64,000 nucleotides of DNA from Bacteroidales bacterium UBA4333 (GCA_002394335.1 DGTP01000014.1:88138-152137); one strand, 5' to 3'; shown: positions 1,771 to 63,037, counted from the stretch's first letter. The notes: generated from the sequence alone by a model not told the origin. Numbers and translations are program-made.

Positions 1771-1773
1771 AGG

Positions 1774-2847
1774 TCAGGATTTTTGGGCGTTCTTGCGGTC
1801 TATGATACGCCATAGAATGACTGTAAGGACAGTGGCTATCGCAAAATCAACAAAAGTCAGCAGCCACATGTTCCAGTTTCTGCCAAGGATAGCCAAAGCC
1901 ATAAACCAGAGGGAGACGAAGATCAGTATTCCGGTGGTCTGAATATGGTTAAGTCCTGTGCGGAGAAGCAAGTGGTGGATATGGTTGCGGTCAGGCAGGA
2001 ACGGCGACTTATGGTGTTTGATACGTGTGAAGCTGACACGGATGGTATCGAAGATAGGAACGGTCATCAGGCACAGCGCCACCGCCGGAGCCGCCGACAT
2101 ATGCAGGGTATCAGGAACAGTGTGATAGGCGTTGATCTCGCAGAAATGGAACACAAAAGCACTCAGCACGTAGCCCAAAAGCAACGATCCCGAATCGCCC
2201 ATGAAAATCTTCTGCGACCTGCCAAAGACATTGAAGCAGAAATAGACAGCCAGACTGCCGATGAGGCTGACAGCCATGATCGCCCATGGTGTCTCGCCGG
2301 CAAGCGAGAAATAGATGGCGAAAAAGAGACAGTATAACATTCCCAATCCGGATGCCAAGCCGTCAATGCCGTCAATGAGGTTGATAGCATTGGTCACCGC
2401 AACCAGCACAAGGAAAGAGAGCAGATAAGACGGCAGAATACCGATCTGCTCAATGCCCAACAGCCCGTGTAGATGGGTGATCCGCAGGTCTGCAAACCCA
2501 ATCATGGCTATGCCTGCAAGCACTTCGCCCAAGAGTTTGGCAAGCGGCGAGAGCACCAGCACATCGTCCACCAGACCGACGATAACAATCGTCAGCACGC
2601 CGATCATGAAGAACTGGCTCTGCTGGAGGGTATCGTACTCGAAGACCATGTAGGTGAACAGAAAACTGATACAGATGTCTATTCCGCCGATATTGGGAAT
2701 ACTGCCTACATGGCACATCCGCTTATTGGGGCGTACGACAAAATCCTTCTTCTTGGCAATGCGGATGACAAGCGGCATCAACACCAATCCCAACAGAAAG
2801 GAGAGAAAACCGATAATATAGGTATGGTCTAAAATAAACGATAACAT
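1774..2847 (-). CDS. Polyprenyl-phosphate HexNAc-1-phosphate transferase (MraY/WecA family)
   Basis: 357-aa polytopic membrane ORF with the NAINLIDGIDGLASG motif typical of the MraY/WecA family. Its ATG shares one base with the upstream stop (TAATG). Confidence 0.85.
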   Translation of the reverse strand: MLSFILDHTYIIGFLSFLLGLVLMPLVIRIAKKKDFVVRPNKRMCHVGSIPNIGGIDICISFLFTYMVFEYDTLQQSQFFMIGVLTIVIVGLVDDVLVLSPLAKLLGEVLAGIAMIGFADLRITHLHGLLGIEQIGILPSYLLSFLVLVAVTNAINLIDGIDGLASGLGMLYCLFFAIYFSLAGETPWAIMAVSLIGSLAVYFCFNVFGRSQKIFMGDSGSLLLGYVLSAFVFHFCEINAYHTVPDTLHMSAAPAVALCLMTVPIFDTIRVSFTRIKHHKSPFLPDRNHIHHLLLRTGLNHIQTTGILIFVSLWFMALAILGRNWNMWLLTFVDFAIATVLTVILWRIIDRKNAQKS

Positions 2848-4799
2848 TATTGATCCAATTGTTCGTAAATAGAGTTGTTACTAATATATTCGGGTACAAT
2901 CTGCTTCATGAGTTGTACGGTGAGGAAAGGCTTGTTGGCATGTGCGAGGGAAATGAGTTGGTCAATGAGGAGCGAAACTTGGTCGTAGTCTTCCTCGCGA
3001 ACCCTTGCCACCATGATTTTCTCGTTTTGGGTAGGGATGGTCGTCTCCTTCTGGTTGAGCAGTTCCTCATATAGTTTCTCACCCGGACGCAGTCCCGTGA
3101 AGACGATAGGAATATCTTTTCCGGGGATATATCCTGCGAGTCGGATCATGTTCTTCGCCAGATCCAGAATCTTGACAGGTCGTCCCATGTCGAAGACAAA
3201 GATTTCGCCACCTTCGCCCAACGTGGATGCTTCGAGCACAAGGCAGCAGGCTTCCGGAATGGTCATGAAATAGCGGATGATATCGGGATGAGTGACCGTA
3301 ACGGGTCCTTTGGCGGCTATCTGTTTTTTGAAATAGGGTATGACCGATCCGTTTGATCCGAGGACATTACCAAAGCGTGTGGTGATGAACTTGGTGCAGG
3401 AAGGGTCGGAGTGGTGCAGTTTGTTGAAGAGTGACTGCACGTAGATCTCAGCAATGCGTTTGCTGGCGCCCATGATATTGGTAGGATTGACCGCTTTGTC
3501 TGTAGAGATCATAAGGAATCGTTCTACATGATACTTGACCGCCGTGTCCGCCATGTTCTTGGTACCGAGTACATTAGCCATGATGGCTTCGTTAGGGTAG
3601 TCCTCCATGAGAGGTACATGCTTATATGCCGCCGCGTGATAGACCACATCCGGTCGGAACTCAGAGAATATCTGTTCAAGGCGCTCTTTGTTCCGGATAT
3701 CGGCGATGACGGGAATGAACCGCGCGTCGGGGAAGAGATGACGCAGATCCAGCGTCAGGTCATGGAGCGGCGATTCGGCGAGTTCGATCAGGATAGTAGC
3801 CTTCGGGCGGAACTTCTGTACCTGACGTACTATCTCCGACCCGATGCTTCCTGCTGCACCGGAGATGAGCACCACTTTGTCGCGTAGGATTTTATCGACA
3901 TTATCGGTATTGATATTGATGGTAGGGCGCTCAAGGAGGTCTTCGATCTTGATGGACTCGATGCGTCCGATATTCTGTTTGCCGGAAGAATCCTCGGACT
4001 CAAGTTCGGTGAACTGCGGGGTAGTGAGGATACGGATGCCGTGATCAATGAATATCTGCAGATCCTGATCCGGTTTGATCTCGCGCATCTTGGTAGGCGA
4101 GATGATGATGTCATGGACATTGTGGGTCTTCATCCAGATAAAGAGTTTGTCGCTGAGTCTGAAGACAGGCATGCCCATGATGTCGTGGCGCTCCGGTTTA
4201 TCGGAGCTTTCAATGAATCCGGCAGGGCGGAATGGCGTGTTATCGGACGAACGGAGCATTTTGGCAATGGCGATACCAGCCGCTTTGGTCCCGTAGATCA
4301 TCACCCGTTTGCTACCGGCAGACTGCTGGTAGATCATTTCGTACAGGGTCTTGACACCCACCCGCAGGCAGAACAGGAAGACAAAGGCAATAGGCATATA
4401 AATACCGATGACGGTGTTGAGCAGCAGTTGCCGTGAAGTGAACCGATGATAGGTGAGATTGAAAAGTATTAGTATCATTCCGCATCCGAAGACGGCAATA
4501 AAGGACTTGATAGTGTCTATAAACGTGGAATAGCGGAGGATTCCCGAATAGGTGTGGAAAAGCCAGAAACAGCCTATCTGTACCGACAGGAGGATCAGAT
4601 ACTGCTGCCAAGCCGGTAACACTCCGCCGGGTTGGAAGCGGTAGGAGAACGCACCTTCGCCGAGCCATAGGCTTGTCCAGTAAGCAACGGATATGAGCAC
4701 AATATCTATCAGAAGGACTCCCCATCTGGGCAGATAGGTAGAGTCTGGGATGTGCGAGAAGATATCCGACGAGGCTAATTCGTTTCGTTTGTTGATCAT
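2847..4799 (-). CDS. Membrane-anchored nucleotide-sugar 4,6-dehydratase/epimerase (CapD/WbpM/PglF-like)
   Basis: 650 aa. N-terminal TM helices are followed by the Rossmann motif LISGAAGSIGSEI and HAAAYKHVPLME. ATGA overlap with the uvrA stop. Confidence 0.85.
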   Translation of the reverse strand: MINKRNELASSDIFSHIPDSTYLPRWGVLLIDIVLISVAYWTSLWLGEGAFSYRFQPGGVLPAWQQYLILLSVQIGCFWLFHTYSGILRYSTFIDTIKSFIAVFGCGMILILFNLTYHRFTSRQLLLNTVIGIYMPIAFVFLFCLRVGVKTLYEMIYQQSAGSKRVMIYGTKAAGIAIAKMLRSSDNTPFRPAGFIESSDKPERHDIMGMPVFRLSDKLFIWMKTHNVHDIIISPTKMREIKPDQDLQIFIDHGIRILTTPQFTELESEDSSGKQNIGRIESIKIEDLLERPTININTDNVDKILRDKVVLISGAAGSIGSEIVRQVQKFRPKATILIELAESPLHDLTLDLRHLFPDARFIPVIADIRNKERLEQIFSEFRPDVVYHAAAYKHVPLMEDYPNEAIMANVLGTKNMADTAVKYHVERFLMISTDKAVNPTNIMGASKRIAEIYVQSLFNKLHHSDPSCTKFITTRFGNVLGSNGSVIPYFKKQIAAKGPVTVTHPDIIRYFMTIPEACCLVLEASTLGEGGEIFVFDMGRPVKILDLAKNMIRLAGYIPGKDIPIVFTGLRPGEKLYEELLNQKETTIPTQNEKIMVARVREEDYDQVSLLIDQLISLAHANKPFLTVQLMKQIVPEYISNNSIYEQLDQ

Positions 4800-7531
4800 T
4801 GTAATAAGGGCTTGATATATTTTCCTGTATAACTATCGGGGCACAGCGCCAAGTCTTCCGGTGTGCCTTCAAAAACAATGTTTCCGCCTTGGTCTCCTCC
4901 TTCGGGTCCGAGATCTATGACATGGTCAGCCGCCAAGATCATGGAGGCGTTATGCTCGATGATGACGACGGTGTGTCCTTTCTCGATAAGGCGGTTCAGC
5001 GCTCCGATAAGCACCTGTATGTCGCGGTGGTGAAGACCAGTGGTGGGTTCGTCGAAGACAAACATTGTAGGAGGCTGGTTCTCCTGTGCAAGGAAGGAGG
5101 CGAGTTTGACGCGCTGGCTCTCTCCGCCGGAAAGGGTGGAGGAGGACTGCCCCAACTGAATATACCCGATACCTACATCCTGGAGCGGTTTGAGGCGTTG
5201 TACGATCCTGCGGCATTGCGGATCCTCAGAGAAGAACTCAATCGCCTGATTGACGGTCATGGTCAGGATGTCGTAGATCGATTTGCCCCGGTAACGGACA
5301 TCGAGCACGTCCTGTTTGAAGCGTTTGCCATGGCAATGTTCACATTCAATGGTGATGTCTGCCATGAACTGCATTTCGATGGTGATGGTGCCTTCTCCTT
5401 CGCACTCTTCGCATCGTCCGCCCGGCGTGTTGAAACTGAAATGGGCAGGTGTGAAGCCGAGTTGCTTAGCGAGTGGCTGTTCGGCAAAGAGTTTGCGGAT
5501 CTCGTCGTACGCTTTGAGATAGGTGACGGGATTCGACCGTGAGGACTTGCTGAGCGGGTTTTGGTCAACAAACTCGATGTCTTTGATTAGATGCAGACTG
5601 CCTTTCAGGGCATTGTAGTCGCCGGTTCGCTCTGCCAGACCGCCGTAGTACTTCTTCATGGCAGGGTAGAGCACCTTGCTCACGAGCGAGGACTTGCCGC
5701 TACCGCTCACACCGGTGATGACCGTCATGACACCTAAGGGGAAGCGGACAGATATATGCTTGAGGTTGTTCTCGCATGCTCCGACGACCTCTATATAATC
5801 GCGCCAGCCCCGTCGATGAGGAGGAATGGCATATTCGAACCGTTTGGAGGAGGGTTTGCCCTCGTAGATCACTTCCCCTCCGTGTCTTCCCGCTGCCGGA
5901 CCGATTTCTATAATATGGTCTGCCGCACGGATGATCTCTTCGTCATGCTCGACAACAACGATGGTGTTGCCCAAGTCCCGCAACTGTTTGAGGACCCGTA
6001 TCAGGCGTTCCGTATCGCGTGCATGGAGACCGATAGACGGTTCGTCCAAGACATAGAGCGAGCCTACCAGACTGCTTCCCAAGGATTTGGCGAGACTGAT
6101 ACGCTGGCTCTCGCCGCCGGAAAGTGTGTTAGACGGGCGGTTGAGGGTGAGATAGCCGAGTCCGACATCTTCCATAAACTGCAGCCGTGAAGTGATCTCA
6201 TGGAGGAGATGTGCGGCTATCTGTTGCTCCTCGGCGGAGAGTTGCAGGGTATTGAACCATTCTCGGAGCCGGGTGACAGACATCTTGATGAGGTCTGTAA
6301 TCGCCATTCCTTGAATTTTGACGTAGGTAGCCTCTTTACGCAGGCGCAGCCCCAGACACTCGGGACAGATAGTACGTCCTTTGTAGCGCGCCAAAAGAAC
6401 ACGGTACTGGATTTTGCTGAACTGCTTGGACTCCAACTCCTGAAAGAAAGCGTGCAAGCCGCGGAAATATTCGTTTCCGGTCCAGAGTAACTGCCGTTGC
6501 TCTTGGGTAAGGGCGTAATAGGGGGTATGGATCGGGAAGTCAAACTTGGAGGCATTGAGGATCAGGTCGTTTTTATAGACCGACATCTTCTCGCTCTGCC
6601 AGCAAGCGATGGCATCGTCGTAGATGGTTTTGGATTTGTCTGGAACAACGAGATCAGGGTCGATGCCGGAGACGATACCCGAACCTTTACATTCCGGGCA
6701 TGCTCCCAGAGGATTGTTGAAATCGAAGAGGTGTTCGGAGGGTTCGATAAAAGTGATGCCATCCGCCTCAAACCTCTCGGAGAAGGTGCGTTTGTTGCCG
6801 TCTATCCATACAACGCACTCGCCATAGCCTTCAAAGAAAGCGGTCTGTACAGAGTCGGCGAAATGGTTGCTGGTAGCCTGCTCATGATCCACAACGACAC
6901 GATCTACCATAAGATAGGTTTCGGGCAGGAGTCGCCCTTTCTCATCGGTTATCTCATCGATGGTGTCATCGGTCAGGCGGATGGTCTTGCCGTCCTGCAT
7001 AAGTCGCGCAAAACCCTCTGACCGCCAGATAGCAAGTTGTTCTTCGACCTTGCGCTCCCTCGGCATAACAGGCGATAGAAGATACAGACGTGTGCCTTTG
7101 GGCTGCTGCTCCATATACATGACTACATCGCGGATAGTGTGCTTATGCACCTGTTCGCCGGATACGGGCGAGTAGGTGTGACCCACGCGCGCGTAAAGGA
7201 GTTTGAGATAGTCGTATATCTCGGTTGTAGTACCGACAGTAGAGCGGGGGTTACGGTTGGTGACTTTCTGCTGGATAGCAATAGCCGGTGGGATACCCTC
7301 AATCTTTTCGACATCGGGTTTCTGCATACGTCCGAGGAACTGGCGTGCGTAGGAGGATAGGCTCTCTACGTACCGCCGCTGTCCTTCGGCATAAAGGGTG
7401 TCAAACGCCAACGAAGACTTGCCGCTACCACTCACTCCCGTGACGACCACCAGTTTACCCTGCGGAATATCGACCGAGACGTGTTTGAGGTTATGGGTGT
7501 TGGCATTCTCTATATGGATAAATTCACTCAA
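4796..7531 (-). CDS. uvrA: Excinuclease ABC subunit A
   Basis: 911 aa. [36 protein letters not shown] plus a second [12 protein letters not shown] module. CxxC zinc motifs ([22 protein letters not shown]). Confidence 0.9.
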
Positions 7532-8684: not shown

Positions 8685-8963
8685 TTAGTTGTTTTTGAAT
8701 TGGTCTTTGATCCCCGCTGTAGGACGGAAAGCTATCTGTCTCTTGGCAGGAATAACGGAGCGAACACCGGTTTTCGGGTGCACTATAGTGCGCTCGTTGC
8801 GTTGCTTCAGTTCGAAGGTGCCAAGTCCCTGCAACGGAACAGCCTCGTCACTCATCAATGATTCGAGAATGACGGCGTTCGTGGTATCCAGCAACTCTTG
8901 TGTGCGCCGTTTGGTTAAGCCTGTTGCCTGAGCAATGTTGGCGATGATCTCTTTTGTTAACAT
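8685..8963 (-). CDS. HU/IHF family DNA-binding protein
   Basis: 92 aa, with LQGLGTFELKQRNERTIVHPKTGVRSVIPAKRQIAFRP (HU arm region). Overlaps the rimO stop by 7 nt. Confidence 0.8.
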   Translation of the reverse strand: MLTKEIIANIAQATGLTKRRTQELLDTTNAVILESLMSDEAVPLQGLGTFELKQRNERTIVHPKTGVRSVIPAKRQIAFRPTAGIKDQFKNN

Positions 8964-10273
8964 ATGGTTGCGTATAAATCAAATTCTTCAGCTTTGGTGA
9001 TCTTGACGGAGTGGAATTCGCCCACTTTCCAATTGGCATCGGTCTCTTCGGGAGCCGGTTTGAGAATAAGCACTTCGCAGTCCACTTCGGGTGAGTCGAA
9101 CTCAGTACGGCCGATATAGTAGTCCTCTTCTTCGCGGTCTATAATAACGCGCATGGTCTTTCCGACGTGTTGAAGCATCAATTCCCCCGATATCTCCTGC
9201 TGTATAGCCATCAGTTGATCTAATCGCTGCTGCTTGACATCCTCCGGGATGGAGTCTTCGTAGTGGTTGTAGGCGTAAGTGCCTTCTTCGTTGGAATAGG
9301 TGAAGGCTCCCATCCTGTCGAACCGCATCCGGCGTGTCCATGCCTTGAGTTGCTCAAAATCCTCTTCGGTCTCACCGGGGTGTCCCACCATGAGTGTGGT
9401 ACGGATACAGATGCCGGGCACCCGTTCGCGGATTTTAGCGATGAGTGCGTCTTGCTCTGATGCGGTGATATGCCTGCGCATGAGCCGCAACATCGAGTCG
9501 GTACAATGCTGAAGGGCTATGTCGAGATACCGGCATATATTGGGGTGCTTTGCCATCACGTCCAGCAGTTGTTCGGGGAAGTCGGTTGGGTAGGCATAAT
9601 GGAGCCGAATCCATTCGACGCCTTCTATCTGTGCCATCTCGTCGATGAGTTCGGGTAGCATGTGGCGGTGCTCCAGATCCAAGCCGTAGCTACTGAGATC
9701 CTGTGCAATGACGTTGAACTCTTTGACTCCTTGCGAAACGAGCCAGCGCACCTCATCGAGTAGTTCTTGTTTTGGGCGGCTGGTATGCCTGCCTGTGATG
9801 AGCGGTATGGCGCAGTACGAGCACATCCGGTTGCACCCCTCCGAGATCTTGAGATAGGCGTAGTGGGAGGGAGTGGTGAGGTGTCGTTCAAAAGAGCATT
9901 GTTGTGTAGGAGTATCTTGCAAGAGAGTCAACATGGACTCAAAATCGAACTTGCCGTAGTAGGCATCCACTTCGGGCAGTTCTGCCTCAAGTTCGGCACG
10001 ATAGCGCTCGCTCAGGCAGCCCATGACGATGAGTTTTTTGAGGTTGCCTTGTTTCTTGCGTTCCGCCATCCTGAGGATCATGTTGATTGACTCCTCTTTG
10101 GCGTCGCCGATGAAGCCGCAGGTGTTGATGACGCATATCTCGCCCTTGGGATCGGGCGAGTCATGGACACACCGCCATCCGGCGAGTTCCCACTGCCGCA
10201 TCACCCGCTCGGCATCCACGAGGTTTTTGGAACACCCAAGGGTGATAAAATCGATTTCTCCCTTATGCATCAT
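8957..10273 (-). CDS. rimO: Ribosomal protein S12 methylthiotransferase
   Basis: 438 aa. ITLGCSKNLVDAE N-terminal domain, radical-SAM CNRMCSYCAIP, and a TRAM-like C-terminus. Confidence 0.88.
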   Translation of the reverse strand: MMHKGEIDFITLGCSKNLVDAERVMRQWELAGWRCVHDSPDPKGEICVINTCGFIGDAKEESINMILRMAERKKQGNLKKLIVMGCLSERYRAELEAELPEVDAYYGKFDFESMLTLLQDTPTQQCSFERHLTTPSHYAYLKISEGCNRMCSYCAIPLITGRHTSRPKQELLDEVRWLVSQGVKEFNVIAQDLSSYGLDLEHRHMLPELIDEMAQIEGVEWIRLHYAYPTDFPEQLLDVMAKHPNICRYLDIALQHCTDSMLRLMRRHITASEQDALIAKIRERVPGICIRTTLMVGHPGETEEDFEQLKAWTRRMRFDRMGAFTYSNEEGTYAYNHYEDSIPEDVKQQRLDQLMAIQQEISGELMLQHVGKTMRVIIDREEEDYYIGRTEFDSPEVDCEVLILKPAPEETDANWKVGEFHSVKITKAEEFDLYATIC

Positions 10274-54377: not shown

Positions 54378-54385
54378 CTTTCTTG

Positions 54386-54458
54386 TGTCCCCCGAGAGGC
54401 TCGAACTCTCGACCCACTGATTAAGAGTCAGTTGCTCTACCAACTGAGCTAGGGAGAC
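54386..54458 (-). tRNA. tRNA-Lys (anticodon CUU)
   Basis: The reverse complement is GTCTCCCTAGCTCAGTTGGTAGAGCAACTGACTCTTAATCAGTGGGTCGAGAGTTCGAGCCTCTCGGGGGACA. It has a 7-bp acceptor stem, D-loop AGCTCAGTTGGTAGAGC, anticodon loop CT-CTT-AA and T-arm GGTTCGAG-like GAGTTCGAGCCTC. No encoded CCA. Confidence 0.92.
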
Positions 54459-55220: not shown

Positions 55221-55760
55221 TCATATCTTGGCTACTAATGTGAGGCCGTTCTTGCCACCGATGGCATAGCCTTCGTAGTCGGCATCTCTCGTATGCAAAT
55301 GATCCACTATCAACGCTTGATCTTGCGCTATCGTGCGGCAGAAGAACGTGTCGCAGGCATGCAGCTTGCTGTTGACGGCTTCCTCCACGCGCCATCGGTA
55401 GTCGCCCAAATAGCTCAACACACAAACGCGGTTCGGTAGCCACGCAATACGCACGCGGTCGCCCTTTTGACATTCATCAGCATGAATAGCATTTGTATGG
55501 ATGAAGTCCGATTCTTCGTTCGCTTTTGCGTATTGTTCCAACACGCGCGCTGTGCTTTGCCGAACGGAAGAATAGCCTTTCTTGTAACCCCAAATACGGC
55601 TGAGGGTGTCTGGACTGAGTCGTTCTCCTGTTGCACGCAATATAGATATACTCAGTTCTCCGAAATCGGCAGGAGTTGCCGGAACATGTCCAAAACGCGC
55701 TTCAACTGCCTTTTTCAGTTGGCAGATGGCGATACTATTTGTTTGAAAAGAAGTGTCCAT
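55221..55760 (-). CDS. Hypothetical cytoplasmic protein, 179 aa
   Basis: Clean ORF, divergent from the kinase gene. I recognise no motif; the N-terminal about 85 aa are helical and basic (possible HTH). Confidence 0.6.
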   Translation of the reverse strand: MDTSFQTNSIAICQLKKAVEARFGHVPATPADFGELSISILRATGERLSPDTLSRIWGYKKGYSSVRQSTARVLEQYAKANEESDFIHTNAIHADECQKGDRVRIAWLPNRVCVLSYLGDYRWRVEEAVNSKLHACDTFFCRTIAQDQALIVDHLHTRDADYEGYAIGGKNGLTLVAKI

Positions 55761-55831: not shown

Positions 55832-57037
55832 ATGGATACTAATTCGTTCACATCGGGTCCTATCCGTCTGCTTAGTTCGCAAGAATTAGGTGCAAATCAC
55901 CTTACGGATTATGAATTGTTGTCTGACTCCGGGCACAATCTGATTTATCGTGTGCAAATGGGCGGCAAATGGGTTGTACTGAAGGCTGCCAAACCCACTG
56001 AAGGCGAACGAACCCGCAATCAACTCCTGTTGGAGCGTGAGTTTGAGATCATGCATCGTCTGGACTCAATCTATGTGGTTCAGACGATAGCCATGGTGGA
56101 CGACCCGCAGTTAGGCCGCTCCATTCTGATGGAATATGTCCATGGGCGTCCGTTAGACCGGTTTATAGCGGAGAATCCTTCTGCTGCGGAGCGCCGCCGC
56201 GTAGCGGACGAACTGATGGAGGCGTTGGTTTTCCTGCATGACCGTCAGGTAGTGCACGGCGATTTGAAGCCGAGCAATATCCTGATTACCGATTCGGGCA
56301 ACCATGTCCAGTTGATTGATTTCGGTTTTTCGGACAATGAAGCATTCATCGCTAAGAATATCGGAACATCGCCGTCGATCAGTTCGCCGGAACAACTGCC
56401 CACTGATGTTCTAAAACCCGAACGGGACATCTATGCGTTAGGTAAGATACTTGCGCTCCTTTTCCCACATTCATCAATCCATCAATCCATCATTTCATCA
56501 ATTGTTCGCCGGTACACCTCAGTCCGCCAGGTCCGCTCTGCGCTCCATCGTTATTGGCGAATGAGGTGGTTGCTGCCGATGCTCGCTTTTTTTGCTATTG
56601 CGGCAGCTTGTTTGGTTTGCTTCCGGCCGCAGCAACAAGAGGTTTCCCCTGTTGTCGAGTACCATACGGATACGGTCGTTGTTATACAGCCTGCGCCGCC
56701 GGCGGTGGATTCCGTATGGTTGAATGTAAAGAGTAAGGCAGCCGGACGATACAAGGCGCTGTATCGCTCCTATGCCGATTCGATTAAGAACATGCCGAAA
56801 AAGATTCACAATGATGCCTTAGCTATGACAAGTCGCTATGCTAATCAGATGCTACAAACGCGAGATAAATTTGCGAAGTCCTATCCTCAATATGAGGAAC
56901 AATTGTATGATCAATACCTTTTTATCTATAGCCGGGACCTCCCGCGCTTGGAAATCATCTATAAAGATTATCCGATAATGCATGTCAACCTCAACGGTGA
57001 CACAACTTTTATTCCACAAAAGCCGCTTTCCGAGTAA
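55832..57037 (+). CDS. Membrane-anchored Hanks-type Ser/Thr protein kinase
   Basis: WVVLKAAK, HGDLKPSNILI, LIDFGFS. TM helix WLLPMLAFFAIAAACLVCF, then a 135-aa C-terminal domain. ATG 55832 lies downstream of the promoter box. Confidence 0.85.
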   Translation: MDTNSFTSGPIRLLSSQELGANHLTDYELLSDSGHNLIYRVQMGGKWVVLKAAKPTEGERTRNQLLLEREFEIMHRLDSIYVVQTIAMVDDPQLGRSILMEYVHGRPLDRFIAENPSAAERRRVADELMEALVFLHDRQVVHGDLKPSNILITDSGNHVQLIDFGFSDNEAFIAKNIGTSPSISSPEQLPTDVLKPERDIYALGKILALLFPHSSIHQSIISSIVRRYTSVRQVRSALHRYWRMRWLLPMLAFFAIAAACLVCFRPQQQEVSPVVEYHTDTVVVIQPAPPAVDSVWLNVKSKAAGRYKALYRSYADSIKNMPKKIHNDALAMTSRYANQMLQTRDKFAKSYPQYEEQLYDQYLFIYSRDLPRLEIIYKDYPIMHVNLNGDTTFIPQKPLSE

Positions 57038-57829: not shown

Positions 57830-59068
57830 ATGAAACCTGATTACTTTGAGAAAATTCAAAAGCGGTATGACGAATTAGCCAAAGAAGGCTTTAGTTTTAC
57901 CACCGGAATTAAATTTTATCAATCTTTATTAAAGGAACTTCCTAATGTTCCTGATGATACGTATTGTACTCATGAATATATGTTCAGGATTCATGAGAGC
58001 ATACATAAAGATAAGTCATCTAAGACACTTTTGTATAGGCTCTACAATGATGAAACCTGTGAATGGTCGGAATGGAGAGAAAATGATTTCAATACAATTG
58101 ATGATATGACGAGGACTATTCTTGACAGTAGCCCATCGGTGTATTGGAAGGATAAAGATGATGTTGAGCGTGTAGATTTTATGTGGGATGTGATTCTTAA
58201 AGGCAAAAAAATCTATATACTAAATATGGATGGAAGTGAAAATAGTTACGCTCCAAGCAGACAATTAGTTTTGTATGCTCCTGAATTATTACAAAAAAAA
58301 TATATAAGAAAATCTGACAAAAAAGAAATAGGCGGAGATATATTTCCATGGTTGTTTATACAGGTCGGACGGCCAGCTTTTAGATATCCTGATACTCCTG
58401 TTGGTGCGGAAATATTCTCACTGCATACTCGTGAAACTACGGAAGAATCAAGACATTCTTTTGCTCTGTTATTGGTACACGGTTTCCCTGAAATATATGA
58501 TGATAAAAAAAGTGGCACCGCTGCACGCAAACAGACTGTAAAAGAAATAGAAGATGACTTAGCAAAAGGTGTCTTGCCGGCAGAGATTGTCAATGCCCAG
58601 GTGCATATTAACTATGACGGTGCGATGTTTACGCCTGCGCAGGGTCTCCAATATGCCCAAAAGCGGATAGAGGAATTTGAAAAAAGACTGAACGAGATCA
58701 ATCCGGAATTCCTTCACCTCAAAGAAATCCTAAATATGTCTCCCGAGGAGAAAGAAAAGTTTATTGCCGAAGAAAAGAAAAAGGAAGCACAAGCAAAAAA
58801 AGAAAAAGCTGCGAGGAAAGCAGCAAAAAAAGCTGAGAAAGAGGCAGAAGAAAAGAAGAAATCCAAGCTATTTTGGATAGGGACTGCTGTATGGCTCATC
58901 ACGCTAATGTCTCTGTGTGGAATCACATTAGCATTAGATGAATTTTTATACATCGAAGGATGGGTTGCGTTTGCAATATTCGCCGGAGGCATAATAATAG
59001 TTCATTTCGTATGGAAAACCGTTAAAAAGCATCTTAAACGCAAGTGGAGTATCAAAGATGAAGAATAA
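57830..59068 (+). CDS. Hypothetical protein: about 300-aa soluble domain, Lys/Glu coiled-coil, two C-terminal TM helices
   Basis: 412-aa AT-rich ORF, with EEKKKEAQAKKEKAARKAAKKAEKEAEEKKK then LFWIGTAVWLITLMSLCGITLAL and WVAFAIFAGGIIIVHFVW. No motif I can name. Confidence 0.6.
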   Translation: MKPDYFEKIQKRYDELAKEGFSFTTGIKFYQSLLKELPNVPDDTYCTHEYMFRIHESIHKDKSSKTLLYRLYNDETCEWSEWRENDFNTIDDMTRTILDSSPSVYWKDKDDVERVDFMWDVILKGKKIYILNMDGSENSYAPSRQLVLYAPELLQKKYIRKSDKKEIGGDIFPWLFIQVGRPAFRYPDTPVGAEIFSLHTRETTEESRHSFALLLVHGFPEIYDDKKSGTAARKQTVKEIEDDLAKGVLPAEIVNAQVHINYDGAMFTPAQGLQYAQKRIEEFEKRLNEINPEFLHLKEILNMSPEEKEKFIAEEKKKEAQAKKEKAARKAAKKAEKEAEEKKKSKLFWIGTAVWLITLMSLCGITLALDEFLYIEGWVAFAIFAGGIIIVHFVWKTVKKHLKRKWSIKDEE

Positions 59069-59070
59069 TT

Positions 59071-60012
59071 ATGATGCAGAACACCCATCCACATACGCAT
59101 AAATGTTCGATGAGTGCAAGTTGTGCTTATCGCGACACGCAGCAATGCCCGGATAATAGTACCGGATGTATGTTGTACTATCAAAACAACATTTCCGAAA
59201 CTCTTGGCGGAACAGAAATTCAAGAGAAGAACGAAAACAAAATAAACATTAAAGATGGTATGTCGGGAGAAGAAATGCAACAGCAAATGGAATTGCAATT
59301 ACATGAGCAATATGCTCAAAACAATAATGCTTACTTAAATAGTATTATAGCTCTATTTGTAGGCATGTTGGCAGCAATAGGCGCTTATGGATATGTACTT
59401 ATTCATAGCGTGAATTATTTTGAGCCCGTTAGTGGGAATGATACAAACTTGGAATATTCACTGACACAACTAACTTATGCTATGATTGTAGCAATCTTCG
59501 TAATAAATATTATAATGTGTATATGTATTATCCAAGGAACTGCGCAACGTTGTGAACAGTTTATTATACAGAGAATAAGAGATAAATATTACGATGAAAA
59601 CTCTAAAAAGGAGATTTTTCCTGACAGCTATAAACCTTGTGATAAAAAAGGTTTGCAAATTGTACAAGGATTATATGGGGAATTTGTAAAAATAGGATGC
59701 ATTACAGAAACAATGGTATTGCTCAGTTATTGTGCTAAACTTATTGATAATATTATTTCTTTAAAGGATGGCTATAATTTAAACCTTAATGCAACCATTT
59801 GGGTTACGATATCAGTACTTGTTTGTGTGGCAATGGGATATATAGTGTTAAATTGTATGAGAAATTCAGAACAGAAATATTTCAATCGAGAGAATAATAT
59901 AGAAAATCCAGAATCATCTACATCATCAATAGATGAACGTAAGCCGATGTCATTCTTATATTATCTCAAAAAAATTTTTATTTTAAGATTTTGCTATATA
60001 CTTGGTAAATAA
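59071..60012 (+). CDS. Hypothetical polytopic membrane protein (about 4 TM) with a Cys/His-rich N-terminus
   Basis: 313 aa. HPHTHKCSMSASCAYRDTQQCPDNSTGC, then TM segments (IIALFVGMLAAIGAYGYVLI, YAMIVAIFVINIIMCICII, ...). Starts 3 nt after the previous stop. Confidence 0.6.
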   Translation: MMQNTHPHTHKCSMSASCAYRDTQQCPDNSTGCMLYYQNNISETLGGTEIQEKNENKINIKDGMSGEEMQQQMELQLHEQYAQNNNAYLNSIIALFVGMLAAIGAYGYVLIHSVNYFEPVSGNDTNLEYSLTQLTYAMIVAIFVINIIMCICIIQGTAQRCEQFIIQRIRDKYYDENSKKEIFPDSYKPCDKKGLQIVQGLYGEFVKIGCITETMVLLSYCAKLIDNIISLKDGYNLNLNATIWVTISVLVCVAMGYIVLNCMRNSEQKYFNRENNIENPESSTSSIDERKPMSFLYYLKKIFILRFCYILGK

Positions 60013-60091
60013 ACAACAACATAATAGGAGTAAGCTGAAAATCCTTAGAAAAGAGTAAGCAAAAATTAGTTTAATTTAAAATTTTAAACAA

Positions 60092-60244
60092 AATGAAAAA
60101 TTTAATTGCAAAAGTGTTTGGCGTAGAAATTTACGCAAATGCACAGAACATCCATGGTAGAAAATCAAGTGGGGTGGAAGACGCAAATTCTTGTTATCAC
60201 AATTGGAGCAAGAACACCTACGATGTAGGTCCGGACTCCGTTAA
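60092..60244 (+). CDS. Candidate RiPP (lasso-type) precursor peptide, 50 aa
   Basis: Hand translation: MKNLIAKVFGVEIYANAQNIHGRKSSGVEERKFLLSQLEQEHLRCRSGLR. It is the only ATG-initiated ORF spanning most of the 290-nt gap upstream of the B-like gene (a shorter overlapping ORF in another frame exists at 60138-60248). Below the ORF-track cutoff. Confidence 0.45.
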
Positions 60245-60254
60245 CTAAATTTTT

Positions 60255-60284
60255 CTAGAGAATGGAAAGTTTTCCATTCTCTAG
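60255..60284 (+). terminator. Perfect inverted repeat / attenuator between the precursor and processing genes
   Basis: ctagagaatggaaa-gt-tttccattctctag followed by tttatttt. Confidence 0.65.
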
Positions 60285-60302
60285 TTTATTTTGCTATGTA
60301 CT

Positions 60303-60833
60303 ATGTATAAAGAAATTAATCTAAAACATAATAATAAATATTGCTATTTTAATAAATGGTTGGGATTAACATATTTTTCTGAAAAAAAGATGCAAAAGGA
60401 GGCCATTGCAATGCCTGTTGAGATCCATAATCCATTTTTAGTACACTTAAGGACGTCAAAAACTACTCAAAAAGTAAAATTATCCTTTATAATAAAATTG
60501 TATGCTGCGTTATTAGTGTGGTCTGCGAAACACTGCTATCCGTTTATTTATATATTGAGTTATTTACGATTATGTATATATGAGGATGCTCAACAAGCCA
60601 GTTGGGCGTTCCAACAATGCACTATGGGGAATCAGCAGAAGTTATTATGCTTACCCCGTTCTATTTTTATTGCAACTACATCCATGCGATTTAAAGAGCA
60701 TGGGACAATGTATATTGGCATATTTTTGCCTTCGAGAAATATGCACGCATGGGTAATAGAAGATAGTCTGCAAACAGATGGTTGGGACAATTATTGGATA
60801 TTATATCAACCTTTAATTATGATGCGCGGATGA
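60303..60833 (+). CDS. Transglutaminase-like cysteine protease, lasso-peptide B2-type
   Basis: C-terminal LLCLPRSIFIATTSMRFKEHGTMYIGIFLPSRNMHAWVIEDSLQTDGWD. Cys, His 32 residues later, then Asp. First ATG at 60303 (the tracked ORF begins at a TTG). Confidence 0.7.
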   Translation: MYKEINLKHNNKYCYFNKWLGLTYFSEKKMQKEAIAMPVEIHNPFLVHLRTSKTTQKVKLSFIIKLYAALLVWSAKHCYPFIYILSYLRLCIYEDAQQASWAFQQCTMGNQQKLLCLPRSIFIATTSMRFKEHGTMYIGIFLPSRNMHAWVIEDSLQTDGWDNYWILYQPLIMMRG

Positions 60834-61990
60834 ATAAGATTATTACAAAGGGATATACTCAACCTTCTCTGCAGTTTTATAATGCATCCACACATCAGTT
60901 TCAGGCAGACATTTGGGATGAACTGAAACAAGGATTATGGACGCAGTATAATATAGATAATCGCGTATACAATGATAGTATAGGCGAAGTACGACTATCG
61001 GAGTGGAGACCGATATTCCCGAATGTGATTCCAATCTATTCCGGGGTTGAATGGGATGCGCAGCATAATCGATACACAGAGCAACGGTATTACCCACAAT
61101 ATAATACAGATGAAAATTTATACAAGTTTATAGATAAAGCTGCAAACTTTTTTGATAATTATAAAGATAAAAAAATTGGAGTACATCTAAGTGGTGGTTT
61201 AGACTCAAGCCTTATTATATGTTTGTTGCATTATTTACATATCCCTTGTACATTAATTGGCTTTTCTACTAAGCGCTTTGAATTCCGTACAGAACGATAT
61301 ATACAGCAGAAAATGATGGAGTATGGTGAATATGCAGAATTGATAGACTTAGAGCAATATCCATTTTATAGCAAATTATCCAATACCCCCAAGCACCAAA
61401 TACCTGATTCTTGTATCAAACAAAACGAAGCATCACGTGCTCTTGCAGAGGCATTCGCAAAACAAAAAGTAGAAGTCGTTTTTACCGGTCAGGGCGGAGA
61501 TTCCCTTTTTGTAGATGCTTTTATACCAAATACAACGAGTTTTAATATTGGCAATGAATTTACTTTCCCATGGGAACAAGACCTAATATACTCCCCATTA
61601 GGCATAGAGTTGGTCTCTTTTTTTTCTGATCCAACAATTATAGATGCTATATGTTCTATGCGAGTAGGCCAAAAGGATGACCCTCTCAAATGGTGGGCTC
61701 GTAAGACATTTAAAGAAATATTGCCTATTGAGTTATCAGATTATGCCTATTGCGCGGATTTCTTTGGAATTTCCATGAGTGGTTTAGAGGCTGCGAAACC
61801 GGAAATACGATTATTATGTGAGGAGGCGTACGATAGGATTCCCCATCCTATATTTAATCAAAAAGGCATAGAGGAAATTTTATCTACGGATGTGTTCTCA
61901 TTAGAGCACAAAACATATTGTGCATTATGTACAAAAATATCCATAGCTGTTTGGCTGCATAGCTTGTTTAGAGACAATGAAAACAAATGA
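60830..61990 (+). CDS. Asparagine-synthetase-B-like adenylating enzyme, lasso-cyclase-type (short form)
   Basis: KIGVHLSGGLDSSLIICL (PP-loop) and VVFTGQGGDSLFVD. ATG 60830 overlaps the B stop (ATGA). About 386 aa. Confidence 0.7.
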   Translation: MNKIITKGYTQPSLQFYNASTHQFQADIWDELKQGLWTQYNIDNRVYNDSIGEVRLSEWRPIFPNVIPIYSGVEWDAQHNRYTEQRYYPQYNTDENLYKFIDKAANFFDNYKDKKIGVHLSGGLDSSLIICLLHYLHIPCTLIGFSTKRFEFRTERYIQQKMMEYGEYAELIDLEQYPFYSKLSNTPKHQIPDSCIKQNEASRALAEAFAKQKVEVVFTGQGGDSLFVDAFIPNTTSFNIGNEFTFPWEQDLIYSPLGIELVSFFSDPTIIDAICSMRVGQKDDPLKWWARKTFKEILPIELSDYAYCADFFGISMSGLEAAKPEIRLLCEEAYDRIPHPIFNQKGIEEILSTDVFSLEHKTYCALCTKISIAVWLHSLFRDNENK

Positions 61991-62714
61991 TATTCAATTT
62001 TTATACCCAAAGCGAGCTTTTGAAAGCAGCGCTTTCCTTCCTGAAATAGAGGCATTCCGCAATTTTGGATTCATAGTTGAGAATAATCCACAAGAAGATG
62101 CGCAACTTATCTTGTATAGAGGATTTATACTTTGGAAACAAAGTGATTATCCAATAGACAAAAGAATATGGCAAGGATGGAAGGAATATCAAGCAACATC
62201 TTTACTTTCTATATATTATCCGCTCATTGCTGACATATGCATCCCTACGTTTTTTGTAGATGAGTTAGATCAAAAGGTAATCAAAAGAGAAATGGAAAAG
62301 AGGAAATTGGAATGTGTCTTTATAAAGAATGATGTAAAATCATTATTCTGTATAGATGAAACTGCTTCTGTTTATCCAAAACATTCGCTCTTAGAAATAA
62401 AGGAAAATCTTGATAAATACCCACCATTTGAAGGAGCAAAATATGCTATACGCCAATATGTCGATGCGGATTGGACACAAGAAGACCGATATTTTGTAAT
62501 TAATGATCGTATTTTCCATCGTAGCGGTATTATTCCTCCAGTCGTACAAGAAGCAGCTAAAAGATTGAAACCTCTTGGTAGTCATTATTATGTTATAGAT
62601 GCAATGCCCGATTTTATAGTAGAAGTGAATCCTGGTGAAAGTTCTGATCGCTATGGGGACAATCCTCCGGAATTGTTTGCTTCGTGGTTTAAGCAAGCAT
62701 TATCAAGTTTATAA
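61977..62714 (+). CDS. ATP-grasp-like enzyme (R2K / DUF4343-like)
   Basis: 245 aa, with VFIKNDVKS, AIRQYVD..EDRYFVINDRIFHRS and HYYVIDAMPDFIVEVNPGESSDRYG, resembling the ATP-grasp C-terminal half (xxElNdGqxSg). Overlaps the cyclase gene by 14 nt. Confidence 0.5.
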   Translation: MKTNDIQFLYPKRAFESSAFLPEIEAFRNFGFIVENNPQEDAQLILYRGFILWKQSDYPIDKRIWQGWKEYQATSLLSIYYPLIADICIPTFFVDELDQKVIKREMEKRKLECVFIKNDVKSLFCIDETASVYPKHSLLEIKENLDKYPPFEGAKYAIRQYVDADWTQEDRYFVINDRIFHRSGIIPPVVQEAAKRLKPLGSHYYVIDAMPDFIVEVNPGESSDRYGDNPPELFASWFKQALSSL

Positions 62715-62725
62715 AAGCCTGTAGT

Positions 62726-63037
62726 ATGAAATATCTCTTATGCAAAATAGGTCCGTATTTGACCATCCTCGGCTTTATATGCGCATGGATGATAGGCAAT
62801 GATCCAAGCACGAACGGATGGATGACACCTCTTATTATTGTGTCGCTTCTTATGATTATCCCCGGGTGGATATTCGGCTATAGAGTATGGGACATGCATG
62901 TCCCGCCTATTGGCTTTGCATTCATGAGTCAAATGGATGTTTTCGATGCGCGATGGTATAGCGTTTTGGCTTGGGGAGTGCGATTTATGTCCTTCCCGTT
63001 CATCATAGCAATAATCTTAATCCTTATATTTATATAA
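62726..63037 (+). CDS. 103-aa 3-TM membrane miniprotein
   Basis: LTILGFICAWMIG, LIIVSLLMIIPGWIFGY and FMSFPFIIAIILILIFI. Confidence 0.55.
   Translation: MKYLLCKIGPYLTILGFICAWMIGNDPSTNGWMTPLIIVSLLMIIPGWIFGYRVWDMHVPPIGFAFMSQMDVFDARWYSVLAWGVRFMSFPFIIAIILILIFI

Follow-up and report, generated by a model that had tools for sequence, protein, structure and literature searches.

A Conserved Lasso-like Peptide Cassette with an ATP-grasp Partner in Bacteroidota

The Locus and Its Sequence Features

Does a low-GC block in the genome of Bacteroidales bacterium UBA4333 encode a lasso-type peptide pathway, and which of its tightly packed genes belong to it? A sequence-only reading of the 64,000-nucleotide stretch that we analyzed (hereafter the window; GCA_002394335.1 DGTP01000014.1:88138-152137) had proposed a lasso-type or lasso-derived maturation system, in which a short open reading frame (ORF), a transglutaminase-like protease, and an asparagine-synthetase-like cyclase were chained to an ATP-grasp protein, a three-transmembrane (3-TM) miniprotein, and a Hanks kinase, with two orphan membrane proteins upstream. 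We find that the sequence features on which this proposal rested are all present, with two small corrections: the small ORF has 51 codons rather than 50 and starts at 60093 rather than 60092. The interpretation was only partly supported, as the core gene set holds but the kinase and membrane genes do not belong to it. The features of the locus are collected in Table 1.

Table 1. Features of the locus, in window coordinates
Position	Strand	Feature
54385-54458		tRNA-Lys
55221..55760	-	179-aa protein; conserved N-terminal domain resembling, by eye only, a helix-turn-helix; possible accessory regulator, not part of the core
55832..57037	+	Hanks-type kinase paired with the 179-aa protein; by reading of the sequence, a membrane-spanning segment (WLLPMLAFFAIAAACLVCF) followed by a C-terminal domain; possible accessory, not part of the core
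57-63 kb		Low-GC block, GC 0.32-0.38 (about 0.50 elsewhere in the window)
60025..60061	+	DUF805b RNA motif (Rfam RF02914) in the 5' leader: 4-bp hairpin with a conserved 12-nt loop and an AGAGUAGG tail, 32 nt before the precursor ATG
60093..60248	+	Precursor peptide, 51 aa
60093-60155	+	Predicted leader, MKNLIAKVFGVEIYANAQNIH
60156-60245	+	Predicted core, GRKSSGVEDANSCYHNWSKNTYDVGPDSVN
60255..60284	+	Terminator-like hairpin between the precursor and B (13-14 bp stem plus a T-run); perfect 14-bp inverted repeat 60255-60268 / 60271-60284 followed by TTTATTTT; likely a partial terminator or attenuator
60303..60833	+	B-like leader peptidase, 176 aa; LLCLPRSIFIATT...NMHAWVIEDSLQTDGWD; transglutaminase-like Cys116/His148/Asp(159/162) core at residues ~95-176; N-terminal ~90 residues a beta-strand-rich domain
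60830-60833	+	ATGA overlap of B and C
60830..61990	+	C-like ATP-dependent amide synthetase, 386 aa; KIGVHLSGGLDSS and TGQGGDSLF; PP-loop SGGLDS at residues 121-126, GQGGD at 220-224; no N-terminal glutaminase Cys
61977..62714	+	ATP-grasp ligase, 245 aa, related to the R2K_3 family; predicted tailoring enzyme

Conservation of the Gene Set

We compared the window with more than 100 related loci and found the order peptide-B-C-ATP-grasp to be conserved on one strand in about 33 genome loci and about 50 metagenome loci from Bacteroidales, Flavobacteriales, and Ignavibacteriales, including one cultured carrier, Flavobacterium ovatum (CP160035.1). In all, the cassette is found in over 100 Bacteroidota loci. 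The ATP-grasp gene follows C in nearly every locus whose contig reaches that far, confirming it as a true conserved partner. Relatives of C form about 116 clusters at 50% identity with E<1e-30. More distant tblastn hits to C in Proteobacteria and Acidobacteria proved to be ordinary glutamine-dependent asparagine synthases of 620-665 aa with an MCG N terminus, unrelated to the cassette, and a scan of IMG/VR viral contigs for C relatives found none.

One subfamily carries a GT4 glycosyltransferase between C and the ATP-grasp gene, as expected for swappable RiPP tailoring. We initially considered that the glycosyltransferase replaces the ATP-grasp enzyme in two loci (L090 and L095), but F. ovatum has both genes, and in L090 the glycosyltransferase gene is followed by an ORF whose translation reads as transposase-like.

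No gene family beyond these four is conserved downstream, and no conserved exporter or immunity gene was found among the loci compared; as the sequence-only reading had stated, there is no separate PqqD-like RiPP recognition element (RRE), no ABC exporter, and no isopeptidase nearby. The 3-TM miniprotein, the Hanks kinase that follows it, and the two upstream membrane proteins occur only in the closest relatives of the window (loci L001-L003 and L052), and the kinase belongs to a separate kinase-vWA-PP2C module. Homologues of the 179-aa protein lie within 10 kb of the cassette in 11 of 33 genome loci, in variable orientation, and homologues of its paired kinase (Pkinase, E=5e-26) lie next to them near the cassette in 8 of 33. 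We also considered the tRNA-Lys gene as an island integration site and rejected it, since the low-GC block lies on the 5' side of the tRNA gene and begins about 2.4 kb away.

The Precursor Peptide Family

The small ORF is conserved as a peptide family upstream of B in more than 60 loci, with the layout Ile/Val at -2, one further leader residue, and then a core of the form G1-x-K3-[S/T]4-x-G6-x-x-[D/E]9, followed by an aromatic putative plug near residue 16-17 and a variable tail. Among the 66 peptides collected, G1, S/T4, and G6 are invariant, K3 is present in all but one, position 9 is Asp in 63 and Glu in 3, position -2 is Ile or Val in all (counted as Ile in 56 and Val in 7), and the first Trp or Phe falls at 16-17 in most. 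Most of these peptides were collected with a motif that required G-x-K-[ST]-x-G-x-x-D, so that invariance at those positions is independently supported only by the BLAST-derived set, a relaxed search, and one locus, L131. This spacing is the arithmetic of a 9-membered lasso macrolactam, although the leader has no YxxP motif and no Thr at -2. An apparent link between loss of Lys3 and absence of the ATP-grasp gene rests on a single rearranged contig (L131) and is not reliable.

The DUF805b RNA motif, which the sequence-only reading had missed, scores 40.7 bits against a gathering score of 35.6 and covers the whole 35-nt model (positions 1-35). It lies directly upstream of the precursor gene above the gathering score in 8 of 10 loci scanned (38-49 bits), and we find it in 49 of 65 distinct precursor upstream regions, ending 21-29 nt before the ATG, as well as in F. 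ovatum; its stem pairs covary. The family name points to DUF805 genes, but here the motif precedes the precursor gene in most loci. A variant 5' motif in four loci (L023, L026, L035, and L075) is not recognized by any Rfam family. Downstream, a strong hairpin of different sequence follows the precursor stop codon in nearly all related loci and in F. ovatum.

The Enzymes

The sequence features are not due to chance: C116, H148, and D162 of B are invariant and D159 nearly so in 22 homologues. Cys116 and His148 are 32 residues apart, and McjB, read from plasmid NZ_CP147061.1, has C150/H182/D194, so that the Cys-His spacing given for McjB in the sequence-only reading is correct. The window protein nevertheless falls below the curated cut-offs of Pfam Transglut_core3 (PF13471; E=8e-4, 19.7 against 26 bits) and NCBIfam lasso_biosyn_B2 (NF033537; E=1e-4, 22.7 against 33 bits). 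Homology is still likely, as 17 of 22 and 20 of 22 family members, respectively, hit these families at E<=0.01 and essentially nothing else, lasso_biosyn_B2 being the only NCBIfam family hit by more than one member. An hhalign comparison of the B family with McjB aligned only 17 columns around the catalytic His (E=0.17), a Foldseek search of the B model (AF2 pLDDT 89) against the PDB gave only weak papain-like and transglutaminase-like proteases at E~1, and a profile search of PDB sequences returned nothing useful. None of the 22 B homologues hits the PqqD family (PF05402) and the 55-nt gap contains no extra gene, although the N-terminal ~90 residues of B, modeled with confidence as four strands plus helices, could not be searched on their own.

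In C, SGGxDS and GxGxD are invariant in 24 homologues, there is no Cys2 glutaminase nucleophile, and Pfam Asn_synthase (PF00733) scores above cut-off (E=2e-11, 44.6 against 21 bits). An hhalign comparison with McjC gives E=1.2e-5 over 170 columns, although C is about 385 aa against 513 aa for McjC and lacks about 130 residues of the N-terminal region. C scores far below the curated lasso-cyclase models (NCBIfam NF033535, 15.9 against 525 bits; NF033561, 19.3 against 300), and the AsnB model TIGR01536 scores higher (33.7 bits). A profile search of PDB sequences with the C family found only CarA and AsnB, weakly.

The 245-aa protein is modeled with a confident ATP-grasp fold (AF2 pLDDT 93.5), its top Foldseek PDB hits being PsnB, MdnC, LysX/ArgX, RimK, and GshB (E down to 5e-9), whereas a profile search found no sequence-level match to any solved structure. 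The window protein itself gives no hit to R2K_3 (PF14243) at E<=1, but 14 of 25 relatives hit it at E<=0.01 (best 3e-6). The family has an invariant E216-V-N218, a standard ExN motif, rather than the ExGD motif of the last strand described for R2K.3 (PMC4431377).

A Model for the Cassette

We suggest, with a probability of roughly 0.65, that this is a self-contained four-gene RiPP cassette making a lasso-type ring peptide that is further modified by the ATP-grasp ligase. In this reading, it is an apparently undescribed variant of the lasso class with an obligate ATP-grasp tailoring step. What the analysis establishes is the gene set, its conservation, the catalytic motifs, the modeled folds, and the peptide pattern, whereas the mode of expression, the cleavage site, the ring chemistry, the threading of the tail, and the reaction and substrate of the ATP-grasp enzyme are inferred. 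In this view, the precursor would be transcribed from the leader carrying the DUF805b motif, most transcripts would stop at the hairpin, and read-through would supply the enzymes, whose genes would be translationally coupled through the ATGA overlap of B and C and the 14-nt overlap of C and the ATP-grasp gene. B would cut after the leader ...N-I-H through Cys116-His148-Asp, recognizing the invariant Ile/Val at -2 and exposing Gly1; C would adenylate the side chain of Asp9 through its PP-loop and join it to the Gly1 alpha-amine, giving a 9-residue macrolactam whose tail is presumably held by the Tyr/His/Trp cluster at residues 14-17. The ATP-grasp enzyme would perform another ATP-dependent ligation on the peptide, for which the invariant groups left over are Lys3 and Ser/Thr4 as nucleophiles and the C-terminal carboxylate. 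An Ile(-2) leader, a rare variant, is experimentally validated in a bona fide lasso system (PMC10368454). Weighing against the model are the remoteness of B and C from canonical lasso enzymes, the lack of a detectable RRE, of a YxxP motif and Thr(-2) in the leader, and of a conserved exporter or immunity gene, and the conservation of K3, S4, and G6, which is much stronger than in typical lasso families and could mean a different chemistry.

A more far-reaching reading, possible but unlikely on present evidence, is a new topological class of RiPP, in which a Gly1-Asp9 macrolactam formed without a PqqD-type recognition element would be locked covalently by the R2K-like ligase through Lys3 or Ser4, for example to the C-terminal carboxylate. 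The result would be a lasso-graspetide hybrid, its near-invariant ring sequence across gut, rumen, and environmental Bacteroidota would reflect one conserved target or a signaling role, and the orphan DUF805b RNA would be its dedicated expression control.

Alternatively, and also unlikely, the same enzymes and peptide may yield a branched-cyclic or bicyclic rather than threaded product, such as a Gly1-Asp9 lactam plus an ATP-grasp cross-link, or an ATP-grasp Lys3/Ser4-Asp9 ring with C doing something else, which would make it a graspetide-like or hybrid class merely descended from lasso enzymes. Ring formation alone does not explain the invariance of Lys3, Ser/Thr4, and Gly6, two carboxylate-activating ligases accompany the peptide in nearly all loci, the nearest structural neighbors of the ATP-grasp enzyme are the graspetide macrocyclases PsnB and MdnC, C lacks the N-terminal region noted above, and no RRE was detected. 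However, G1 and D/E9 followed by bulky aromatics 5-8 residues later is the arithmetic of 9-membered lasso rings, there is only one invariant side-chain carboxylate, and the enzyme pair B plus C is not known to us outside lasso pathways.

It is doubtful that the whole co-directional run, from the two membrane proteins to the Hanks kinase (plus vWA and PP2C beyond the window), works as one system, as the sequence-only reading held; in such a system the kinase, for example, would phosphorylate Ser4/Ser5 of the peptide and the membrane proteins would export it. The spacing is tight, with gaps of 11 nt and 1 nt following the 14-nt overlap, the arrangement is kept in L001-L003 and L052, and phosphorylated lasso peptides made by HPr-kinase-type enzymes exist (PMC10368454). 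Yet none of the extra genes accompanies the cassette in about 30 other genome loci or about 45 other metagenome loci, and their divergence is uncoupled from that of the cassette: in L003, C is 100% identical, while the 3-TM protein is 78%, the first membrane protein 82%, and the second is truncated. In addition, GC content steps up at the kinase module, and the kinase resembles the defense kinases PD-T4-6 and mad6 and travels with vWA and PP2C.

A conflict or protein-tagging system acting on cellular or phage proteins, with the small ORF incidental or antitoxin-like (close to the alternative that the sequence-only reading had allowed), is very unlikely and not needed to explain the core: although the cassette sits in low-GC variable regions, often beside defense-like genes (a kinase-vWA-PP2C module, bpMoxR-vWA, AAA_14/DUF4143 (PDC-S01), AbiD, and MADS parts), lacks an exporter, and carries a relative of the R2K-clade ATP-grasp enzymes predicted to modify proteins in conflicts (PMC4431377), the cis-encoded small ORF is the most constant feature of the locus, with a leader/core layout and its own RNA leader motif and terminator, none of the peptide, B, C, or ATP-grasp proteins hits PADLOC, and no homologue was found in IMG/VR viral contigs.

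Relation to Known Systems

Class II lasso clusters with a fused B protein, such as microcin J25 mcjABCD, share a short precursor, a Cys-His-Asp protease, an Asn-synthetase-like PP-loop enzyme without glutaminase activity, a core starting with Gly with an acidic residue at position 9, aromatic residues where steric plugs are expected, and a hairpin after the precursor gene. The present cassette differs from them in its remote B and C enzymes, its Ile/Val(-2) leader without YxxP, the lack of a detectable PqqD-type RRE and of an ABC exporter, its almost universal fourth gene, its invariant ring residues, and its Bacteroidota host. The Bradymonas bsf and related clusters (PMC10368454) share the Ile or Val at the penultimate leader position and a conserved Ser near the N terminus of the core, but bsf has separate B1 (RRE) and B2 proteins, a YxxPxL leader motif, and an HPr-kinase-type kinase, none of which we detect in the present family, which carries an ATP-grasp enzyme instead.

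Graspetide synthetases (PsnB, MdnC) and other peptide-directed ATP-grasp ligases (RimK, LysX/ArgX) are the best structural matches of the 245-aa protein (E 5e-9 to 1e-7), which keeps the E-x-N metal-binding motif and conserved Lys and Arg residues but is about 60 residues shorter and sits closest to Pfam R2K_3, and the precursor lacks the repeated Thr/Ser...Asp/Glu core motifs of graspetides. The description of the R2K.3 family (Burroughs et al. 2015, PMC4431377) predicts peptide or protein ligation in conflict contexts and does not report linkage to lasso-type genes.

Significance

Literature searches found no description of this family, which appears to be undescribed. Lasso peptides are prized scaffolds, yet almost none are known from Bacteroidota: a BAGEL4 survey of 1,136 Bacteroidales genomes flagged a single "LasC" region and did not analyze it (PMC10352776), and a 2026 review of interlocked peptides mentions neither Bacteroidota nor ATP-grasp tailoring (PMC13352647). 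The present family is common in gut and rumen Bacteroidales but largely scores below the curated B and C family cut-offs. If our reading is correct, it would give the smallest known lasso-type cyclase, a leader-recognition mode without a detectable RRE, the first biochemical context for an R2K-like ATP-grasp enzyme, and a functional handle on an orphan Rfam RNA motif. The strongly conserved core suggests a specific biological target in a medically relevant phylum.

A Conserved Four-Gene Cassette

The sequence-only reading had described a co-directional run of genes with a lasso-peptide-like core, and the ORFs of the 54- to 64-kb part of the window confirm this observation. The Cys/His/Asp and PP-loop peptide strings that it quoted are present, and the only corrections are trivial: The small ORF has 51 codons rather than 50 and starts at 60093 rather than 60092. 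The inverted repeat between the small ORF and the next gene is a perfect 14-bp repeat followed by a T-run, the ATG of the C gene overlaps the stop codon of the B gene as ATGA, and the GC content falls from about 0.50 to 0.32–0.38 across 57–63 kb. The low-GC block, which extends from about 56.8 kb to at least 72 kb in L001 (an identical locus on a 264-kb metagenome contig; loci compared with the window carry L numbers), is composite, with GC steps at about 63 kb and about 67 kb.

Coordinates of features in the window and in related loci
Sequence	Position	Strand	Feature
Window	51–54 kb		Queuosine genes (QueF/QueC/QueD/QueE-like)
Window	54385–54458	-	tRNA-Lys(CTT), between the queuosine genes and the variable region
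Window	55221–55760	-	179-aa protein with conserved N-terminal domain (TLKRLWGY motif)
Window	55832–57037	+	Hanks kinase paired with the 179-aa protein
Window	57830–59068		412 aa, C-terminal membrane segments
Window	59071–60012		313 aa, membrane protein
Window	60025–60061		DUF805b RNA motif (Rfam RF02914) in the 5' leader of the precursor gene
Window	60093–60248		Small ORF, precursor peptide, 51 aa
Window	60255–60284		Inverted repeat (hairpin)
Window	60303–60833		B, 176 aa from the ATG
Window	60830–61990		C, 386 aa from the ATG
Window	61977–62714		ATP-grasp protein, 245 aa
Window	62726–63037		103 aa, three hydrophobic segments (3-TM miniprotein)
Window	from 63039		ORF running off the window
Window; L001	62726–64000; 11897–18825		Downstream module (3-TM miniprotein, Hanks kinase, vWA protein, PP2C phosphatase, and further genes)
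L016; L017 (Porphyromonas-type)	8752–9456; 1395–2105		8xMP family membrane protein between the precursor gene and B
L026	12614–15483		bpMoxR AAA ATPase and vWA protein directly after the cassette
L133 (Flavobacterium ovatum, CP160035.1, region 1403800–1416537)	1839–7487		Expanded cluster
L077	3023 and 5068		Two precursor genes
L080	272 and 4686		Two precursor genes
L001; L028; L073; L078; L004	19578; 7994; 5889; 5891; 7050		DUF805b motif before unrelated genes in the same islands
L005; L052; L011; L056	732; 216; 7666; 1959		DUF805b motif before unrelated genes in the same islands

A genome scan with the C family returned 33 loci from Bacteroidota and Ignavibacteriota, the remaining hits being ordinary asparagine synthases, and a metagenome scan added about 50 more. 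BLAST of every window protein against the ORFs of these loci shows that only four genes travel together, always in the same order and on the same strand: small peptide, B, C, and ATP-grasp. All-against-all clustering of the neighboring genes finds no other family in more than 11 loci, and the genes immediately downstream are unrelated from locus to locus. A Pfam census of 123 neighbors shows a mix of housekeeping and island genes, with a single ABC ATPase among them, and no exporter or immunity gene is conserved.

The sequence-only reading had further chained the 3-TM miniprotein and the Hanks kinase to the core, with the two upstream membrane proteins beside it. These genes occur only in the window's near relatives (L001–L003 and L052) and diverge at rates unrelated to that of the cassette; they are therefore neighbors, not components, and the earlier interpretation is supported in part only. 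In L001, the kinase (424 aa) is followed by a vWA protein, a PP2C phosphatase, a 228-aa protein with an HELLH (HExxH-type) motif and weak metallopeptidase-family hits, and two paralogous coiled-coil membrane proteins. The kinase resembles the defense kinases PD-T4-6 and mad6 and has weak, subthreshold zinc-ribbon hits. The module, which is conserved only in L001–L003 and L052, with fragments in L004, resembles the kinase-vWA-PP2C (“TerY-P”) triads and is probably a separate defense or signaling system. In L026 the cassette is likewise beside a vWA-containing module: It is followed directly by a bpMoxR AAA ATPase (E = 1e-52) and a vWA protein, which are parts of MoxR-vWA ternary conflict systems.

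A 179-aa protein and a Hanks kinase recur near the cassette in 11 and 8 of the 33 genome loci, respectively, in variable orientation. Judged by inspection of the sequences alone, the 179-aa protein has a helix-turn-helix-like N-terminal domain, and the kinase has a membrane-spanning segment followed by a C-terminal domain. We hypothesize that the pair may be a regulator or sensor for the cassette. Longer homologues of the 179-aa protein (in L028, L029, and L034) carry an SRA domain (E = 1.5e-13).

The Three Predicted Enzymes

The B protein hits only Pfam Transglut_core3 (E = 8e-4; 19.7 bits against a cut-off of 26) and NCBIfam lasso_biosyn_B2 (E = 1e-4; 22.7 bits against a cut-off of 33). Of 22 homologues, 17 hit Transglut_core3 and 20 hit lasso_biosyn_B2, and, one unrelated hit aside, they hit nothing else. 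Residues C116, H148, and D162 are invariant, and since McjB, read from an annotated microcin J25 plasmid, has C150/H182/D194, the 32-residue Cys-His spacing is shared. However, a profile comparison with McjB alone is not significant, and the confident AF2 model (pLDDT 89) has no significant neighbor in the PDB.

The C protein passes the Pfam Asn_synthase threshold, but only over the PP-loop half (E = 2e-11). Its family keeps SGGxDS and GxGxD invariant and has no N-terminal Cys nucleophile. It aligns with McjC at E = 1.2e-5 over 170 columns but scores far below the curated lasso-cyclase models. The 245-aa protein has no Pfam hit itself, although 14 of 25 relatives match R2K_3 (PF14243). Its AF2 model (pLDDT 93.5) is an ATP-grasp fold, the best PDB neighbors of which are the graspetide macrocyclases PsnB and MdnC, followed by LysX/ArgX, RimK, and glutathione synthetase (E = 5e-9 to 1e-7).

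The Precursor Peptide and Its RNA Context

The small ORF belongs to a conserved family, in which a leader of 13–25 residues, beginning with MKK plus hydrophobic residues, has Ala/Ser at -7 and Ile (56) or Val (7) at -2 and is followed by G1-x-K3-[S/T]4-x-G6-x-x-[D/E]9. Position 8 is usually Glu (44 of 63), and position 9 is Asp in 63 peptides and Glu in three divergent loci. An aromatic cluster, typically Y-K-H-W, with the first Trp/Phe at 16–17, precedes a variable tail of 5–15 residues, occasionally far longer, that ends in Asn in 38 of 63. Most of these peptides were collected with a motif that required G-x-K-[ST]-x-G-x-x-D, but the BLAST-based set, a relaxed search, and the independently found peptide of locus L131 support the pattern without that circularity. 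The predicted core in the window, GRKSSGVEDANSCYHNWSKNTYDVGPDSVN, has a linear monoisotopic mass of 3285.438 Da. The pattern of the family is the layout expected for a lasso core with a 9-membered Gly1-Asp9 ring and aromatic plugs; 9-membered rings and plugs at these positions occur in characterized lasso peptides. An Ile(-2) leader has been validated experimentally in a lasso pathway (PMC10368454).

A strong hairpin follows the precursor stop codon in nearly every locus and, because the stem sequences are unrelated, it is the structure that is conserved. In the 5' leader, the DUF805b motif scores above its Rfam gathering score in the window. The same motif lies directly upstream of the precursor gene in 8 of 10 loci scanned with Rfam, and it occurs in 49 of 65 distinct precursor upstream regions, ending 21–29 nt before the ATG, with covariation in both the inner and outer stem pairs. 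A second set of eight loci lacks it, some of these carrying a variant that Rfam does not recognize. The motif also precedes a few unrelated genes in the same islands. Some loci (L077 and L080) encode two precursor genes, one upstream of B and one downstream of C, each with its own DUF805b-like leader. These observations link an orphan cis-regulatory RNA candidate to a RiPP precursor.

Variation among Loci

F. ovatum, a cultured isolate with a complete genome and a convenient experimental system, has the precursor, two small extra ORFs (51 and 92 aa), B, C, a GT4 glycosyltransferase, the ATP-grasp gene, and a metallophosphatase, with a divergent HTH regulator upstream; the leader motif, precursor, and hairpin are all present. 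Aequorivita sinensis also encodes the ATP-grasp homologue. The glycosyltransferase is also found after C in two further loci, L090 and L095, and in L090 it is followed by an ORF that, as we read its translation, is transposase-like. L131 has only precursor, B, and C, and its peptide has Met in place of Lys3, but that contig is rearranged, so this single case proves little. Porphyromonas-type loci insert a membrane protein of the 8xMP family (PF24838, E ~ 1e-26) between the precursor and B, a candidate export or immunity component specific to that lineage. Such modular extras are typical of RiPP tailoring.

Proposed Maturation and Relation to Known Systems

Our analysis establishes the gene set and its conservation, the catalytic residues, the modeled folds, the peptide pattern, and the RNA elements, whereas the maturation steps are inferred from sequence alone and any threading of the product is putative. 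In the most likely mechanism, B removes the leader after the [I/V]-x dipeptide, C adenylates Asp9 and closes a Gly1-Asp9 lactam, and the ATP-grasp enzyme performs a second ligation. After ring closure, the only invariant reactive groups would be Lys3 and Ser/Thr4 as nucleophiles and the C-terminal carboxylate, other acidic residues not being fixed in position, and a ring-to-tail lock or a C-terminal extension are therefore the simplest options.

Linkage to such genes is not mentioned in the paper describing R2K enzymes (PMC4431377), in a graspetide census, or in a 2026 review of interlocked peptides (PMC13352647), and a survey of Bacteroidales RiPPs recorded one “LasC” region without analyzing it (PMC10352776). 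On the inferred mechanism, the cassette works like a fused-B, class II lasso cluster. It differs from such a cluster in that B and C do not reach the curated thresholds for B and for the lasso-specific C models, in that the leader lacks Thr(-2) and YxxP, in that no RRE is detected, and in the addition of a nearly obligate ATP-grasp partner. We place it with the lasso type as a cassette that is real, apparently uncharacterized, and widespread, with about 116 clusters at 50% identity.
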